A stretch of DNA of 64,000 nucleotides from a virus: positions 1 to 64,000 of IMG/VR virus record IMGVR_UViG_3300031965_000004; one strand, 5' to 3'. Of this stretch, positions 5,961-29,605 are shown piece by piece; within the stretch, counting starts at the first letter, position 1; every line of letters starts with the position of its first letter. Both the position numbers and the translations under genes were made by a program. The notes under the pieces are model-generated. The model had not been told where the DNA came from and made no database searches. It was given only the letters and a program-made list of their open reading frames with translations.

Positions 5961-8304
5961 CGTAGATTTTCCCGTGGCCACCGCCGAGCGCGCGGAGCAA
6001 GGGGACGTATTCGGCGTGGATAGCGAGGGCTTGCTTAACGACACCTTGCGGATCTGCGGGCCCTGTTCGCATGGACCATTCAAACTCAGTAGGGCTCCAG
6101 GGGCCCTCACTTGGGTATCCCGCCTCGAGCAACGCTCGAGCAAGACGACGCATTTCCAAGTGCCAGAGGGCACGATCGCGGTTGTCTGCGTATCCCACGG
6201 CCCACAGCAATTCGCCGGGGAGCCGCTCCGAGTAGAACCGGTGGCCCAACACCCCCTGCCCGATCCTGCGGATACGGTCCCCGTGCTCGTTGGCGAGCCG
6301 GTTGAGGACGGGTCCCTGTTCCGGCGTGTAGCCCCCAGGTCGCGTCCGGTCGTGCTGCAAGTCCGCCTCCAAGTGCCACCCAACGAAGTGCAGGAAGGGG
6401 TCGGGGTGATCGCGCAGGAAGTTGATCTCGCCCGAGCGGAGGTGTCGGCCGACGTAGGCGATTCGAGCCTCGGGGTCGGACGGCGGACCCGCTCGATCGA
6501 GCGCCCGATCGCTTGCGTCGGGGTTGCGTTTGATCCAAGGCGCCAGTGTGATCGAGTAGCCCCCGTGCTTGAGGGCGTAGTCGACGGACTGGCCCTGATA
6601 CTTGTGGAGGAAGACGAAGCATTCGTTGTGGCTTCCGCAGAACAGGATCTTCTCGGGAAGGTCCCGGTCGTTTTTGTCGAGACCGACGTAGGTCACGCAG
6701 TATTCGGACTCGAGCCCTGGGTTGGCGCGCTGAAGTCCCTTGCCCGGCCACCGGCGGTCGTAGGTGATGTCGAGCCCGAGCGCCTCCTCCGCCGCGGCGT
6801 CAGCTTCGGCCTCTGACCCGTGCGGGCCGGCGAGTTCGTGCCCGACCTCGTGCGCCAGCACCCCGCGCAGGTTCCGGGCGGGCAGCCAGCGCGCCTGCTC
6901 GGCGAGCTCGTAGCGAGGATCGCCTGCTCCTGCGATCTCCCCGCCCGGGAAGTAGAGCTGCGCGTAGCGGCGAGGCGAGGTCTCGTGCAGGCGCGAGAGG
7001 GACGAAGGCCAGGAGAGCGCGGGACGGCCCGGCAGCCCCCCCTCCTCGCGGAGGCGACGGAGTTGGTCGAAGACCTCGCTCCGCGGGCGGGGGAACCGGA
7101 CGCGCGGGTGCTCGTGGCCAGGGTTGGTGGGGTTCTTCTTCGGCTTCAGCGCGCGGGCCAGCCGGGCCGGGAACGCCTTGCGCATCGCGATCCGGCGCCG
7201 CTCGCGGGTGGCGTAGAGGGCCTCGCGTGGGACGTAGTAGGCGGCGAAGTAGCCTTTGGGGTAGAACGTCCCGTCCGCTGTCGTGAAGCCCTTGGAATCG
7301 GCGCTGGCCCGAACGAAGGCTGCCGCGTTGCTTCCGTGGACAGGAGCGACCACCGACTTGCCGACCATGCCTCGCCCCTGGCACCACCCGCAGGTGTCAC
7401 ACGTCCAGCGGGTCTCCATGCCGGCCTCGGGGTAGTGGGGGCAGACGAGCTCTGACCCCTCGAGCGGGAGTTGGGCGGGACCGGCCGCGCGATAGGTGCG
7501 CCATCCGTAGATCGTCTGGGCGAGGACCTGCTGGTCAGGGCTATCGACGCTCGCCATGCAGAAGTCTTTGAAGCCCTGGAATTGGGGATCGTGCCACTGA
7601 TGGGTATAGCCTGTCCACCGCGTCTGGTGTTTGAGGATCTTGCGCCAGACCGCCTCAGGCACAGCCACCGGCTCCCCGTAACTGCCGATCCGAACCGGGA
7701 ACGTGAAGGCGAAGAGATCGGCAACGTCTTCAGGCGCGACGCGGGGATACTTGCCGTCAACGTAGGCTTTGTAGATCGTGGCAGGACCTCGGCGCGTGAC
7801 GGTGACGTAGCAGCTCCGTTCCCCCGCTCGGGTCGCCGGCCGCTGCGGGTCCTTTCGCAGTTCTGCTCGAGTCGCAGGACGGACCTCGCCGCGCATTTTG
7901 CAGTCGAAGCAAATGCTGCTGTCCTGGCCGGTGTCCACGGCCTCTTGCGGGTGCATGTCGGAGCGAAGGATCCACGTTTGGATCATGCGCCCGGTCTTCA
8001 CGTTATCGCTGGCCTCGAGAAACCCGGTCGCGATCAGCACGATCGGGGCTCCGTCCATGGGGCTTGGCCCCTCCCAGATCACGAATCCGTTGGCCGCGTA
8101 GAACTTCCGACTCTGGTGGCGCTGGACCGTCTGGCCGCCGACCCAGAAGTGGGGGATCAGCATTCTGTCGGCTTGCTTGAGGGGCTTGGGCGGGTTCCCC
8201 CGCCGGTCTCCGGCGGTCCGGGCGTCGATCTCCGCCAACTCCGCCAACTCGGCCGGGCCTGGGGAGGCGAAGGCCACGCCGGGCCGGTGGGGGTGTAGGA
8301 GCAT
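5953..8304 (-). CDS. NP-segmented polyvalent protein (Cys-rich gp88/radical-SAM-like domain, HExxH zincin-like domain, others)
   Basis: NVKTG..ICFDC..CYV..GYTHQW..CDTCGWC; LAHEVGHE..EAEADA; 5 NP motifs. Confidence 0.7.
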   Translation of the reverse strand: MLLHPHRPGVAFASPGPAELAELAEIDARTAGDRRGNPPKPLKQADRMLIPHFWVGGQTVQRHQSRKFYAANGFVIWEGPSPMDGAPIVLIATGFLEASDNVKTGRMIQTWILRSDMHPQEAVDTGQDSSICFDCKMRGEVRPATRAELRKDPQRPATRAGERSCYVTVTRRGPATIYKAYVDGKYPRVAPEDVADLFAFTFPVRIGSYGEPVAVPEAVWRKILKHQTRWTGYTHQWHDPQFQGFKDFCMASVDSPDQQVLAQTIYGWRTYRAAGPAQLPLEGSELVCPHYPEAGMETRWTCDTCGWCQGRGMVGKSVVAPVHGSNAAAFVRASADSKGFTTADGTFYPKGYFAAYYVPREALYATRERRRIAMRKAFPARLARALKPKKNPTNPGHEHPRVRFPRPRSEVFDQLRRLREEGGLPGRPALSWPSSLSRLHETSPRRYAQLYFPGGEIAGAGDPRYELAEQARWLPARNLRGVLAHEVGHELAGPHGSEAEADAAAEEALGLDITYDRRWPGKGLQRANPGLESEYCVTYVGLDKNDRDLPEKILFCGSHNECFVFLHKYQGQSVDYALKHGGYSITLAPWIKRNPDASDRALDRAGPPSDPEARIAYVGRHLRSGEINFLRDHPDPFLHFVGWHLEADLQHDRTRPGGYTPEQGPVLNRLANEHGDRIRRIGQGVLGHRFYSERLPGELLWAVGYADNRDRALWHLEMRRLARALLEAGYPSEGPWSPTEFEWSMRTGPADPQGVVKQALAIHAEYVPLLRALGGGHGKIYGE

Positions 8305-8325
8305 TGCGGAAGCCTCTCACCGGCA

Positions 8326-8350
8326 ATGCTACCGCCCGACCCCTAGGTAG
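8326..8350 (-). promoter_or_regulatory. CTAC-N15-TAGCAT putative late promoter
   Basis: Exact motif upstream of the 8304 start. Confidence 0.7.
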
Positions 8351-8369
8351 ATCGAATCTTGATTCCCCG

Positions 8370-8394
8370 CTACCCCCGGGGGGAGTGCTAGTTT
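8370..8394 (+). promoter_or_regulatory. CTAC-N15-TAGTTT putative late promoter
   Basis: Exact motif, divergent from the 8326-8350 copy. Confidence 0.65.
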
Positions 8395-8400
8395 CACTGC

Positions 8401-8523
8401 ATGCGGTTAGTCACCTCGGCGGGGTGGCCCGAACTGGACTTCGGTCTGGCGAAGGTGGCCCTTGGAGACTCCGCGCCTGCCGAAGAGACCCCCGAGTCGT
8501 GGATGCTCGGGGGTCTCTTCTTT
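8401..8523 (+). ncRNA. Putative small structured RNA (alternatively a leaderless 42-aa ORF, 8401-8529)
   Basis: Lies between a promoter and a terminator; closing stem TCGGCGGG/CCTGCCGA; GGAC-TTCG-GTCT tetraloop hairpin. Confidence 0.45.
8482..8523. terminator. Bidirectional intrinsic terminator
   Basis: 16-bp stem GAAGAGACCCCCGAGT/GCTCGGGGGTCTCTTC followed by TTT, between convergent units. Confidence 0.8.
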
Positions 8524-8525
8524 GG

Positions 8526-9089
8526 TTAGACGCCTTCGAGTTTGCGTTCGAGTTTGCGCTTGAGTCGCTCATTCTCCGTGCGGAGCTGGTTCACGTCACG
8601 CACGGCCTCACCCCAACTCCCGCGCATTTGGTAGTAGGCTTCCTCGAAGTCTTGCCATTCGTGACCGTCTTCGACCGACGAGATTTGGAAGTCCCCTTCG
8701 CGGATCGTGAGGCCGCAGAGCTCGAACACGCGCTCGACGAGCGCCGTCGTTTTCGCCCCGCAGTTGTAGCTCTTACGGAAGTCGGCGAGCGTGACGTCCC
8801 GTGCCCAAGTCTCCATGGGGACGAGGTCTCCGCGCAGGGCCGGCCTCACGCCGCGCGCCCCCCACGCTTGCAGCGCAACTTTGGCAAACGCGGTCAGGAC
8901 GTTAGTCCTCATGGCCTTGCTCACGTCGCCCTCGCCGAGCCTCGCGACGGCCTCTGGGTAGGTGAGCGAGTGCAGGTCAGGGTTGCCCTCGGCACGGTTG
9001 CGCCGCACGCAGTAGGCGAGCGCATTGGCCTCCGTTGGATCCTCACAAAACGTCCGCCACGCCAACTGAACGATCGCGTCTTGACTCAT
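8526..9089 (-). CDS. RNA polymerase alpha-CTD-like (HhH) domain protein with N-terminal leader module and C-terminal coiled coil
   Basis: GGAGGA SD; TLADFRKSYNCGAKTTALVERVFELCGL resembles the alpha-CTD NxGxKS..I...L...GL motif. Confidence 0.6.
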   Translation of the reverse strand: MSQDAIVQLAWRTFCEDPTEANALAYCVRRNRAEGNPDLHSLTYPEAVARLGEGDVSKAMRTNVLTAFAKVALQAWGARGVRPALRGDLVPMETWARDVTLADFRKSYNCGAKTTALVERVFELCGLTIREGDFQISSVEDGHEWQDFEEAYYQMRGSWGEAVRDVNQLRTENERLKRKLERKLEGV

Positions 9090-11007
9090 ACTGTAGGTCC
9101 TCCACGCCAGGCTGGGCGGAAGCCCAGGTTGAAGTCTCGGAAAGCCGGCCTGTCCGGGCCCCGGGCGGCTGGACGCGCCCACCAGGCGGAGTGGTGCTGG
9201 CCGCCGCCGCGGCGGCGGCGGCGGCTGGCTGATTATAGAACGCGCTGAAGTCGCTGAAGTCGCTGAAGATGCGGATGGGAGATACCACAGTAGCGGCGGG
9301 GAAGCGTTCTGTGTCGTATAGCGGTTGGCGCCACGCGCGGGAGCCCACGGCGCCAACCGCCGCCGCGCAAGGCCGCGTCGGGTGGATAGGGTCCGAGCTC
9401 TCCTCAACCTCCAGCGGCTCGCCAGGCAGGGCGGAATCCAAAGTTGAATCTCCGCCCTGTGATCGTCCTCCGATCGGCCTGGCGACAGAAGGACGCGGTG
9501 TAGGACCAACTACCGCCGCGACCGACGCGCCGGCCGTAGGGTCCGAGCTCTGCTCACCCTCCGACGACGCGCCAAGCAGGCCTGAAGCCGAGTTCGCTGC
9601 TCCAGTCGCCCCGCCCGTCATTGAATCGCAAGGCCGAGCGGCAGAGGGACGCGGAGTAGCCCCAACCACCGCTCCGGCTGACGCGCTTGCCGTAGGGTCC
9701 GGGCCCTGCTCATCCCCCGCGATAGACGGGTCTGAAGCCGAGGTCGTTGCTCCATCCAAACACGTTTCGGCGGCGCATGGCCGAGCGGCAGACGGACGCA
9801 GCGTAACTCCAGGGGCTGGCACGAAGGACGCGCCAGACGTAGGGTCCGGGCTCTGCTCACCCTCCGCGGCGCCATGCCGGTCTGAAGCCGTGGCAAGCGC
9901 TCCAGATGCCTCGCCCGGCTGTGCCCCGCAAGCCCGACCGACAGATTTGATGGGCGTCGACCCAACCGCCGCCGCGAAAACCGAGTCGGTATGGGTAGGG
10001 TCCGGGCCCTGCTCACCCCCCGCGAATCCGTTCTCAGGCGCGCCCTCGTAATCCCGCGTCCACGCGCTTCGGGTCCATTCGAAGACGTTGCCGACCACGT
10101 CATGCAGTCCCCACGCATTGGGCTTCTTCATGCCGACCGCCTTGTGGCCGTCCCTCCAGTTGCCGCCATACCAGGCGATCTGGTCCAGGTCCGCCAAGGT
10201 GTCCCCGTTGGGATACTGGGTGTTGCTGCCAGCTCGGGTGGCGTATTCCCAGCACGCTTCAGTGGGGAGCTGAAACCCGACACGCTCCCCGGCGTCATTC
10301 CAAAGCCACGCTTGGTAGATCGCCTCGTCGGTCTCGTCGAACGCGAGCAGCCCAAGGATCGCCACGTCGACTTCCCCGTCCTCGCGCCGTGGGTGCGGAG
10401 CCAGGTGCATGGACTCGTCCCCCCACTCAACCTCAGCCCATGAGACCCACGTCTCGTCGGCGGACTTGAACCGCGCGCCAGAGCTACGCGCGAAGTCAAG
10501 CCGGTTGATGCGATCCACGACCTCGCGGCAGTGGTCCCATGACACCGACTCTACGGGGTGATCCCCCCACAACCGGCCGTCCGAGTCCATGCGGCTGAGG
10601 CGGCTTGCCCCGGGGCCTTCTGTCGGGAAGTGGCTCGGCGCCTCGCCCGTAATGCGGAACCACTCGCGCGCGGTGAACGGATACTTCGCCATCAAGAAGG
10701 GCTCGCTGAACACTCGCCTGTGTTGCGGCCTCTCGTCGTCGGATCCCTCGCCTTCAGGACTCCCCATGAGGAACTCCCCGGCGGGAATCAGCACGAAGAC
10801 CGCCCCGGTCGTCCGGTGCCGGAACTCCGGCATACCTTGGGCGTTGGCGGGCAGTTCGGTGAACAGAGTGCTAGTCGCCAACCGCAGCGCGTAGGGCACC
10901 TCGCGCCCCGTGCGCTGATACGCCGCGACCAGACCCCTTGCCGCTTCGAGGTCCCCCTTGTCCGCGTGATACGCCCGCGCTAGCAGGCTGATTCGGTCGT
11001 CGGTCAT
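9043..11007 (-). CDS. FGE-sulfatase (SUMF1 / C-type-lectin fold) domain protein; the fold-completing C-terminus lies in -1-frame cassettes
   Basis: FVLIPAGEFLMGS, ERPQH, HPVESVSW, LPTEACWEYATRAG, KPNAWGLHDVVGNVFEW; the RGG.W and GFR motifs are absent in frame 0. Confidence 0.9.
   Translation of the reverse strand: MTDDRISLLARAYHADKGDLEAARGLVAAYQRTGREVPYALRLATSTLFTELPANAQGMPEFRHRTTGAVFVLIPAGEFLMGSPEGEGSDDERPQHRRVFSEPFLMAKYPFTAREWFRITGEAPSHFPTEGPGASRLSRMDSDGRLWGDHPVESVSWDHCREVVDRINRLDFARSSGARFKSADETWVSWAEVEWGDESMHLAPHPRREDGEVDVAILGLLAFDETDEAIYQAWLWNDAGERVGFQLPTEACWEYATRAGSNTQYPNGDTLADLDQIAWYGGNWRDGHKAVGMKKPNAWGLHDVVGNVFEWTRSAWTRDYEGAPENGFAGGEQGPDPTHTDSVFAAAVGSTPIKSVGRACGAQPGEASGALATASDRHGAAEGEQSPDPTSGASFVPAPGVTLRPSAARPCAAETCLDGATTSASDPSIAGDEQGPDPTASASAGAVVGATPRPSAARPCDSMTGGATGAANSASGLLGASSEGEQSSDPTAGASVAAVVGPTPRPSVARPIGGRSQGGDSTLDSALPGEPLEVEESSDPIHPTRPCAAAVGAVGSRAWRQPLYDTERFPAATVVSPIRIFSDFSDFSAFYNQPAAAAAAAAASTTPPGGRVQPPGARTGRLSETSTWASAQPGVEDLQYESRRDRSVGVADVL
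9233..9391 (-). other. Divergent or degenerate cassette 5 (-1 frame)
   Basis: PYPPDAALRGGGWRRGLPRVAPTAIRHRTLPRRYCGISHPHLQRLQRLQRVL*; lacks GFR. Confidence 0.65.
9404..9541 (-). other. Alternative C-terminal cassette 4 (-1 frame)
   Basis: PYGRRVGRGGSWSYTASFCRQADRRTITGRRFNFGFRPAWRAAGG*. Confidence 0.9.
9554..9697 (-). other. Alternative C-terminal cassette 3 (-1 frame)
   Basis: PYGKRVSRSGGWGYSASLCRSALRFNDGRGDWSSELGFRPAWRVVGG*. Confidence 0.9.
9710..9844 (-). other. Alternative C-terminal cassette 2 (-1 frame)
   Basis: PYVWRVLRASPWSYAASVCRSAMRRRNVFGWSNDLGFRPVYRGG*. Confidence 0.9.
9857..10000 (-). other. Alternative C-terminal cassette 1 (-1 frame)
   Basis: PYPYRLGFRGGGWVDAHQICRSGLRGTAGRGIWSACHGFRPAWRRGG*. 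Confidence 0.9.
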
Positions 11008-11546
11008 TTGGCGGCCTTCTCTGTGATCTTTCGCTGTGCGCTCTTGACGTGAGCGAACGTGTCGCCGCGCACAGCCGCGCTGGCGGCGGCCTTGCTGACG
11101 CCGAACTCGCGCGCCAAGTCAGCCGCCTTCTCGCCGGCCGCGCAACGCTCGCGCATCTCTCGGACGCAGCAGTCGCGCAGCTTGCTCTTGGGGTGGCGGT
11201 TGCCGCGAGGAGTCCGCCCGTTGCGCTGCGCGTCGGCAGCGTTCTGCTTGCGAGTCCCCCAATAGAGGTTCTCCAAGTGGTTGTTCTCCTTGTTGTCGTC
11301 CTTGTGGAGCGCGAGCAACCCAGGCGGCCGGGGCCCGACGAAGGCTTCGAGGACAAGAACGTGGACGCCAACGACCCGACGCTTGCCCCCAGGAAGATAG
11401 AGCGTCACCCGCAAGTGCCCTCGGTTTCCAAGCCCGACCGCGAGCGCCTGGCCCGAGGCGTTCTGCACCACGCCCGTATTGCTGACGCGGTAGGCGGAAA
11501 ACCTGTCGCGTAGGTATCCCACGGGCAGCCAACAAACGTCGGTCAC
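11004..11546 (-). CDS. HNH endonuclease (NUMOD4/HNH_3 type) with C-terminal HTH
   Basis: YRVSNTG; VHVLVLEAFVGPRP..LHKDDNKENNHLENLYWGTRKQN. Confidence 0.9.
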   Translation of the reverse strand: MTDVCWLPVGYLRDRFSAYRVSNTGVVQNASGQALAVGLGNRGHLRVTLYLPGGKRRVVGVHVLVLEAFVGPRPPGLLALHKDDNKENNHLENLYWGTRKQNAADAQRNGRTPRGNRHPKSKLRDCCVREMRERCAAGEKAADLAREFGVSKAAASAAVRGDTFAHVKSAQRKITEKAAK

Positions 11547-29531: not shown

Positions 29532-29605
29532 TAGCGAGAGCAGGATTCGAACCTGCGACCTCCGGCTTATGAGGCCGGCGAGCTACCTGGCTGCTCTACC
29601 CCGCG
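29532..29605 (-). tRNA. tRNA-Met(CAT), initiator-like, CCA not encoded
   Basis: CGCGGGGTAGAGCAGCCAGGTAGCTCG-CCGGC-CTCATAA-GCCGG-AGGTC-GCAGG-TTCGAAT-CCTGC-TCTCGCTA; 1:72 mismatch. Confidence 0.92.

Follow-up and report, generated by a model that had tools for sequence, protein, structure and literature searches.

Out-of-frame C-terminal cassettes in a phage FGE-fold gene suggest serial programmed −1 frameshifting

In diversity-generating retroelements (DGRs), target proteins with an FGE-type C-type-lectin (CLec) fold, such as Treponema TvpA and Bordetella phage Mtd, vary in their C-terminal segment, which is the ligand-binding face of these proteins. Herein, we analysed a minus-strand gene with the same scaffold, in which the same C-terminal segment varies, located in a 64,000-nt stretch of viral DNA (positions 1–64,000 of the IMG/VR record IMGVR_UViG_3300031965_000004; hereafter, the window). 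The whole virus record is 94,429 nt long and 74% complete. The gene consists of a frame-0 open reading frame (ORF) of 654 aa (11007–9043), along which several versions of the fold end, termed cassettes here, lie in the −1 frame. The best reading of this layout is serial programmed −1 frameshifting, which we consider fairly probable from the sequence comparisons given below. Unlike a DGR, the locus has no reverse transcriptase (RT) and no pair of template and variable repeats, and a fixed menu of cassettes would be chosen at translation instead of the DNA being mutagenized. No RVT_1 match was found in the whole record. The window cassettes were 64–73% identical to each other, with indels, and about one fifth to one quarter of the mismatches involved A on either side. 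With neither an RT nor A-specific mismatches, the locus is therefore not a DGR. Catalytic FGEs carry a pair of cysteines in the C-terminal segment; by eye, no cassette here has more than a single Cys, that of CRxA, which resembles the non-enzymatic CLec domains of DGR type.

Programmed −1 frameshifting in bacteria and phages, as described for E. coli dnaX (tau/gamma), IS3/IS911 orfAB, and lambda G/GT, resembles the locus in its slip-permissive run in the zero frame, the upstream Shine–Dalgarno (SD)-like purines (a candidate stimulator here), the −1 ORF without a start, and the two or more products with a common N-terminus, which are predicted here. However, a single site with two products is the rule in the known cases, whereas this gene has 4–5 candidate sites one after the other (relatives have about 14 clear ones), each leading to a different exchangeable C-terminal module of one fold. 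The known sites are of the type A_AAA_AAG or G_GGA_AAG, whereas the commonest candidate here is the single-tRNA site C_CCU. Shufflons and invertible tail-fibre segments (R64 pilV/Rci, Mu Gin, and P1 Cin) also join a constant N-terminal part to alternative start-less C-terminal segments, but they use inverted repeats and a site-specific recombinase. The repeats here are direct, recombination that preserves the register can not bring a cassette into frame, and no recombinase was found among the neighbouring ORFs scanned. The orphan C-terminal modules of rhs and cdiA likewise form start-less arrays in which each module is preceded by homology to the end of the main gene. Those tips lie behind the stop of the main gene, each with an immunity gene, and come into use through recombination, whereas the modules here are inside an open frame 0, occupy the −1 frame in every case, and have no partner genes. 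The literature searched, including a term search within a 2016 review on frameshifting (PMC5009743), described no such array.

The features of the gene in the window, all on the minus strand, are as follows.

9043–11007 (−): frame-0 ORF, with N-terminal helices, the N-terminal part of the FGE/C-type-lectin fold, and low-complexity read-through of the array
10021–10797 (−): FGE-sulfatase (PF03781) match in Pfam, 106 bits, cut-off 23.3
9995–10025 (−): boundary repeat 1, with the −1 TGA at 10015–10013 and the candidate slip site C_CCT at 10000–9997 (frame 0 GAC CCT; −1 frame GGA CCC TAC)
9860–10012 (−): cassette 1, −1 frame, 51 codons, TGA at 9859–9857
9839–9869 (−): boundary repeat 2, candidate slip site C_CCT at 9844–9841
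9713–9856 (−): cassette 2, −1 frame, 48 codons, TGA at 9712–9710
9692–9722 (−): boundary repeat 3, candidate slip site C_CCT at 9697–9694
9557–9709 (−): cassette 3, −1 frame, 51 codons, TGA at 9556–9554
9536–9566 (−): boundary repeat 4, candidate slip site C_CCT at 9541–9538
9407–9553 (−): cassette 4, −1 frame, 49 codons, the most canonical one, TGA at 9406–9404
9386–9416 (−): boundary repeat 5, candidate slip site C_CCT at 9391–9388 (GGACCCTAT)
9236–9403 (−): cassette 5, −1 frame, degenerate after RGGGW and without the closing strand, TAA at 9235–9233, −2.1 bits for the C-terminal part

The FGE-sulfatase match covered aa 71–329 of the frame-0 product and corresponded to profile positions 5–206 of 255. 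It ended shortly after the motif GNVFEW, and the last ~50 profile positions were absent from frame 0. The complete domain is thus not contained in a single reading frame, the remainder being encoded in the −1 frame. Third-position GC favoured frame 0 up to approximately position 10050, and within the array frame 0 had the lowest value of the three frames. The array is built on five direct repeats with spacings of 156, 147, 156, and 150 nt. Frame 0 runs through it free of stops and reads EQGPDP, EQSPDP, EQGPDP, EQSSDP, and EESSDP at the successive repeats, while the −1 frame of each repeat reads a TGA followed by xxxGPY. After repeats 1–4, the −1 frame encodes GPY..R..RGGxW..CRxA.R..GFRPxxRxGG over about 45 codons and closes at the TGA carried by the following repeat. 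Behind repeat 5, it departs from this pattern past RGGGW. All boundaries lacked an ATG, GTG, TTG, or near-cognate start between the −1 stop and GPY. The candidate slip site C_CCT occurs in all five repeats, and a GGAGG-like stretch lies 16–17 nt upstream of the slip codon. The sequence thus bears out the initial annotation as to the five repeats, the periods in multiples of 3, the TGA built into the next repeat, and the missing starts.

To compare the predicted products with the fold, a hidden Markov model (HMM) was built from 93 canonical FGE C-terminal regions. At site 1, the virtual −1 product gave a colinear match over positions 1–129 with 124.6 bits, and those at sites 2–4 regained the C-terminal part after a linker (15.7–27.3 bits). 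The C-terminal part of the HMM was not regained in the frame-0 read-through or in the site-5 product. In Pfam, cassette 4 alone matched FGE profile positions 213–254, and cassette 1 alone was too short. The array therefore comprises four intact cassettes and a degenerate fifth one. The earlier claim that the −1 cassettes supply the missing end of the fold holds for cassettes 1–4 and fails for the fifth, which leaves four intact versions instead of five.

The layout was then compared with other assemblies. A contig from the probable source run (X1, soil) was identical over 8400–11100 at a depth of 39. A related strain was represented by a sediment run of another study (X2), the contigs of which span repeat 1 (9993–10261) without an indel. 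They join position 9560 to 9717, indicating that exactly one 156-nt unit is missing (the period of cassette 3), and they have 18 nt fewer in a 9-nt tandem repeat at 9243, with one copy versus three in the window. The X2 sequence behind repeat 1 did not align to cassette 1 of the window, indicating a different first cassette, and the unusual 3' end of the window array is common to both strains. It follows from the X1 and X2 contigs that the frame relation is real and that closely related strains differ by gain, loss, and replacement of cassettes. An assembly error as the source of the layout is excluded, in line with the initial annotation, which had discounted a single sequencing indel. There were no indel variants in the array in the contigs examined, in which rare variants are dropped.

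Frame 0 encodes the N-terminal two thirds of the FGE-type CLec fold. According to the reading proposed here, the last ~45 residues of the fold, ending in the closing β-strand GFRPxW, would come from one of the four −1 cassettes. A ribosome arriving at a repeat in frame 0 would meet GAC CCU, where the peptidyl-tRNA(Pro) could re-pair one base back on CCC. Slipped ribosomes would read one cassette and stop at the TGA in the next repeat, and the others would go on in frame 0. One mRNA would then give graded products of approximately 383, 432, 484, and 534 aa, that is, one scaffold with different tips on ever longer disordered linkers. The 654-aa frame-0 product would be made too, in this phage without the closing strand. 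We infer that ribosomes shift, as well as where and how often they do so, from the anatomy of the locus, its conservation, selection, the motifs, and structural fit.

Relatives' loci were fetched by alignment-based scans of viral contigs, a single-protein scan having matched nothing. Searching with the N-domain gave the close homologs P0001 (87% identity), P0002 (71%), P0003 (72%), and P0006 (48%). In the homolog proteins as called, the N-domain is followed by out-of-frame cassettes read in frame 0 and then by one last cassette that lies in frame. Eleven further loci with arrays were translated in all three frames; the array of L042 is a near-exact duplicate of that of L041. All 11 had the same plan, namely a frame-0 N-domain and a chain of −1 cassettes, each closed by a stop. 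Frame 0 stays open for 241–1344 codons after GNVFEW in these relatives, and many arrays are far larger than that of the window, with about 14 clear −1 cassettes in L041. Their cassettes start with (L/P)GPY, LGF, or PF and end with G(L/F)RxAWRxR and a stop. Wherever the end of the array lies on the contig, one in-frame cassette finishes frame 0. A library-wide search returned ~18 representative clusters with the family N-terminus, most of them 600–1570 aa long, and the in-frame end G.R.xWR.R was present in most of 14 further clusters inspected. Searches of cultured phages and of 185,579 bacterial and archaeal genomes turned up no full-length member of the family.

We aligned 66 boundaries between cassettes, and the −1 relation was kept at all 66. 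The initial annotation had proposed to look for the repeat downstream of other FGE genes and to compare selection per frame, and both comparisons came out in its favour. For 19 orthologous cassette pairs aligned as nucleotides, the pooled Nei-Gojobori omega was 0.42 in the −1 frame (many pairs 0.2–0.3), 1.18 in frame 0, and 1.22 in frame +1. The difference between 0.42 and 1.18 indicates that the cassette peptides are selected and the frame-0 peptide is not. To assess the openness of frame 0, synonymous codons of the −1 frame were permuted. In the long arrays, 3–5 frame-0 stops were expected, and the probability of finding none was 0.003, 0.01, 0.0005, and 0/2000 in four loci. Frame 0 and its E[QE]xxDP motif in the window were confirmed as previously described, yet the openness of the window array alone proves nothing and becomes significant only in the long arrays of relatives. 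The −1 stop that closes a cassette alternates among TGA, TAG, and TAA at one position in relatives. Since the codon varies at a fixed position, it is the stop function that is conserved and not the letters, indicating that −1 termination matters.

Slip-permissive signals were counted at the 65 boundaries with enough downstream sequence. The motifs found right after the −1 stop were GGA CCC TAC (frame 0 GAC CCT, giving C_CCT), GGA TTT Tnn (frame 0 GAT TTT, giving T_TTT), and CCC TTT (frame 0 CCT TTN), which at some boundaries makes a classical X_XXY_YYZ heptamer, C_CCT_TTN. An X_XXY run in the frame-0 register within five codons after the stop was present at 55 of the 65 boundaries versus a background of 25%, and C_CCT or T_TTT at 45 of the 65 versus 3.8%. 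At the six last boundaries, which precede an in-frame tail, C_CCT and T_TTT never occurred (0/6), and X_XXY was absent from four and only weak in the other two. Codon choice was skewed as well. Boundary Phe codons were TTT in 29 cases and TTC in 5, compared with 17/155 inside cassettes; Pro was CCC in 56 of 70 and Gly was GGA in 46 of 58. Arg before the stop was AGA or AGG in 75 of 120 cases versus 30% elsewhere, an enrichment seen in the relatives and not in the window repeats, and this choice places GGAG or GAGG 7–17 nt upstream of the slip codon in the relatives. These codon skews are nucleotide-level constraints added to the protein constraints. The earlier proposal, an RT-free gene with one chance per repeat to shift −1 at GAC-CCT/GGA-CCC, thus agrees with the comparative tests of the 11 loci, omega, stops, and motifs, which support such a mechanism.

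Two further candidate elements of the boundaries may be mentioned. The heptamer G_GGC_CCG in repeats 1 and 3 was considered as a signal and rejected; repeats 2, 4, and 5 do not have it, and it is probably incidental. In the record of L002, ARAGORN called a tRNA-like gene on the minus strand (G002:C1:11762-11835) with a perfect T-arm, a 6-nt anticodon loop, and the two-base anticodon 'aa'. It is a speculative thought that a doublet-reading tRNA of this kind would shift −1 at UUN codons, as at T_TTT and C_CCT_TTN boundaries, and the call itself may be false.

Structure models were examined for both a homolog and the predicted N-domain/cassette pairing. In the AlphaFold2 model of homolog P0002, the N-domain had a predicted local distance difference test (pLDDT) score of 80–95. 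Residues 342–498, the frame-0 reading of the −1 cassettes, were disordered (pLDDT <50), and the final in-frame cassette (pLDDT 86–94) formed the last strands. In a Foldseek search with this model, PvdO, the DGR variable protein TvpA (2y3c, third), and FGEs ranked first. We also modelled a two-chain complex of the window N-domain (aa 60–331) and −1 cassette 4, which scored 0.91, compared with 0.47 for the best of three controls, with at least 91% contact agreement between runs and a partner pLDDT of at least 80. Of 80 solved complexes, 58 attained this mark, as did 2 of 110 mismatched pairs, a rough calibration since our own alignments were used. As solved FGE folds exist, passing this mark shows likeness to a split FGE domain and is not proof of binding.

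Serial −1 frameshifting is favoured because it explains together the open but unselected frame 0, the selected start-less −1 cassettes with their stops, the slip-permissive runs after these stops, and the in-frame last cassette of relatives. Several observations weigh against it. The boundaries are paralogous and homologous, so that p-values overstate their independence. Predicted RNA folding downstream of the slip sites was only slightly above controls (−19.1 versus −17.0 kcal/mol, p = 0.008), and hairpins at the boundaries were no better than shuffles, 4 of 5 being worse (z −1.25 to +2.2). The SD-like element upstream of dnaX is spaced by ~10 nt, and the GGAGG-like stretch of the window lies further upstream than that. 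C_CCU is not a classical efficient slip site in bacteria. The openness of frame 0 in the window alone fits chance (P = 0.71). The window copy is without the final in-frame cassette that its relatives carry, which leaves the frame-0 product without the closing strand, and with cassette 5 degenerate it may be partly decayed.

Among the alternatives, switching at the DNA level survives best, and we regard it as unlikely. The −1 cassettes would then be a silent reserve from which recombination between repeats, or a small indel at the C or T runs, sets one into frame; each genome would express one tip, with diversity at the population level only. Turnover of the DNA clearly takes place. As the initial annotation had anticipated, cassettes are deleted and reordered: X2 has lost one unit and replaced its first cassette, and L035 and L046 have cassettes in common in a different order. 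In L035 (8463–8700), a 10-nt tandem duplication (GCGTCCTTGC twice) just after the slip site even sets a cassette into frame 0. This cassette becomes the default end, and a further canonical cassette is orphaned after its stop in another frame. However, every period is divisible by 3, so that the frame relation survives any recombination between repeats, and the −1 relation is indeed kept at all 66 boundaries. Stretches of just 3–4 identical bases are poor mutational switches, and the L035 cassette was the only one found fixed in frame. Such switching also leaves unexplained the purine-rich SD-like skew and a frame 0 that is open down to the in-frame last cassette.

Less probable still is decay, in which the cassettes would be dead tandem duplicates of the 3' end after a frameshift mutation and the gene a pseudogene in this phage. 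Two further features lie at the 3' end of the array.

9089–9232 (−): relic of a sixth cassette, −1 frame, start-less, ending ..NLGFRPAWRGGPTV; its TGA at 9088–9086 overlaps the ATG of the next gene
9205–9268 (−): insert-like stretch with three copies of a 9-nt tandem repeat (9243–9268), TATAAT at 9237–9232, and a GCN run that reads as Ala9 in frame 0

The sixth-cassette relic is probably inaccessible because neither a boundary repeat nor a slip site lies upstream of it. Together with the missing final cassette, the degenerate cassette 5, and an openness not beyond chance, it is what one would expect of a decaying array. By contrast, the four other cassettes keep every conserved residue of the fold and their own stop at the homologous place, the family's −1 cassettes are under purifying selection, and the N-domain has a strong coding signal in third-position GC and is free of lesions. 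That strain X2, which comes from a different study, has this unusual 3' end too also argues against decay.

Transcriptional slippage, in which RNA polymerase would add a base at a boundary so that part of the mRNAs carry a cassette in frame, is very improbable. Short homopolymer runs do occur at the boundaries (CCC, and TTTT to TTTTTT in relatives), but according to the review, known bacterial transcriptional slippage needs a run of ~9 A or T (PMC5009743), and the window has only CCC. We give the least credit to a split protein, with each cassette translated alone and bound to the N-domain in trans, because for all the GGAGG-like motif before each cassette and the seating of cassette 4 on the N-domain in the complex model (0.91 versus 0.47 for the control), the −1 frame has no place to start between stop and GPY.

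Returning to serial −1 frameshifting, the larger arrays of relatives carry an additional kind of content. Segments similar to the T4 gp23-like major capsid protein were found in long cassettes and in-frame tails of six loci.

L041:8252-10667: array with capsid fragments
L038:3769-5554: array with capsid fragments
L001:11743-13246: array with capsid fragments
L045:2052-3372: array with capsid fragments
L036:7455-7736: array with capsid fragments
L002:11528-11908: array with capsid fragments

The likeness comes from BLAST against the capsid protein of a related phage; the Pfam Gp23 profile, which matches one L001 cassette, was too insensitive for most of the others. The in-frame tails matched capsid residues ~25–138 (in L041, 41% identity over 111 aa, E 1.6e-26), and other cassettes matched residues 255–331, 344–419, and 402–449 (E down to 1e-13 for the latter two). 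The fragments do not follow the order of the capsid protein, and the closing strand G(L/F)RxAWRxR caps every one of them. In three whole virus records, the capsid genes were the sole matches outside the arrays. The window's own cassettes contain no capsid-like pieces.

Whether all this amounts to a general display system in uncultured phages, free of RT and recombinase, is in our judgement evenly balanced. In such a system, one mRNA would give 4 to ~14 or more lectin-scaffold tips, and the larger arrays would show capsid fragments between the scaffold and the closing strand. If ribosomes do choose among the modules by slipping at successive sites, viruses would have, next to mutagenic retrohoming and DNA inversion, a third route to binding-protein diversity. 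This route would act at translation, so that a clonal genome would give all variants simultaneously and in fixed proportions. No known bacterial-type mRNA would come near it in the number of programmed frameshift sites in series. The capsid fragments in the larger arrays point to a so far undescribed function: the capsid pieces presented could, for example, act as decoys for host immunity that senses capsids, modulate head assembly, or interfere with competing phages.

Regarding the surroundings of the gene in the window, its neighbours encode HNH, ASCH, MT-A70, and PD-(D/E)XK nuclease proteins and unknowns, which places the gene in a DNA-metabolism region rather than a tail module. The 3' end of the frame-0 ORF shares 46 nt with the next gene, the ATG of which is at 9089–9087. 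The insert-like stretch at 9205–9268 precedes this gene and may be an inserted promoter region; it was left unflagged by a scan of 8300–11300 for sigma-70 consensus promoters, which flagged nothing. The phage also carries tRNA-Arg(TCT) and tRNA-Met(CAT) genes (G000:C1:88458-88530, outside the window, and 29532–29605 of the window).

Some relatives showed further peculiarities. In L044 (4971–5405; homolog 64% identical), the frame of the N-domain stops after 144 codons, so this copy may be broken, carry an insertion, or undergo a further recoding event. ARAGORN called a tRNA-Ala(AGC) on the opposite strand inside the in-frame array tail of L036 (7628–7700) and at a similar position in L044 (complement of 7645–7717), which may be a real overlap or a false call. 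L038 (1635–2264) has a 210-codon ORF in the third frame at the junction of N-domain and array, flanked by a duplicated junction segment. By eye it shows HNH-like CxxC/DH..H..CxxCH motifs without a Pfam match, and frame 0 is open throughout.

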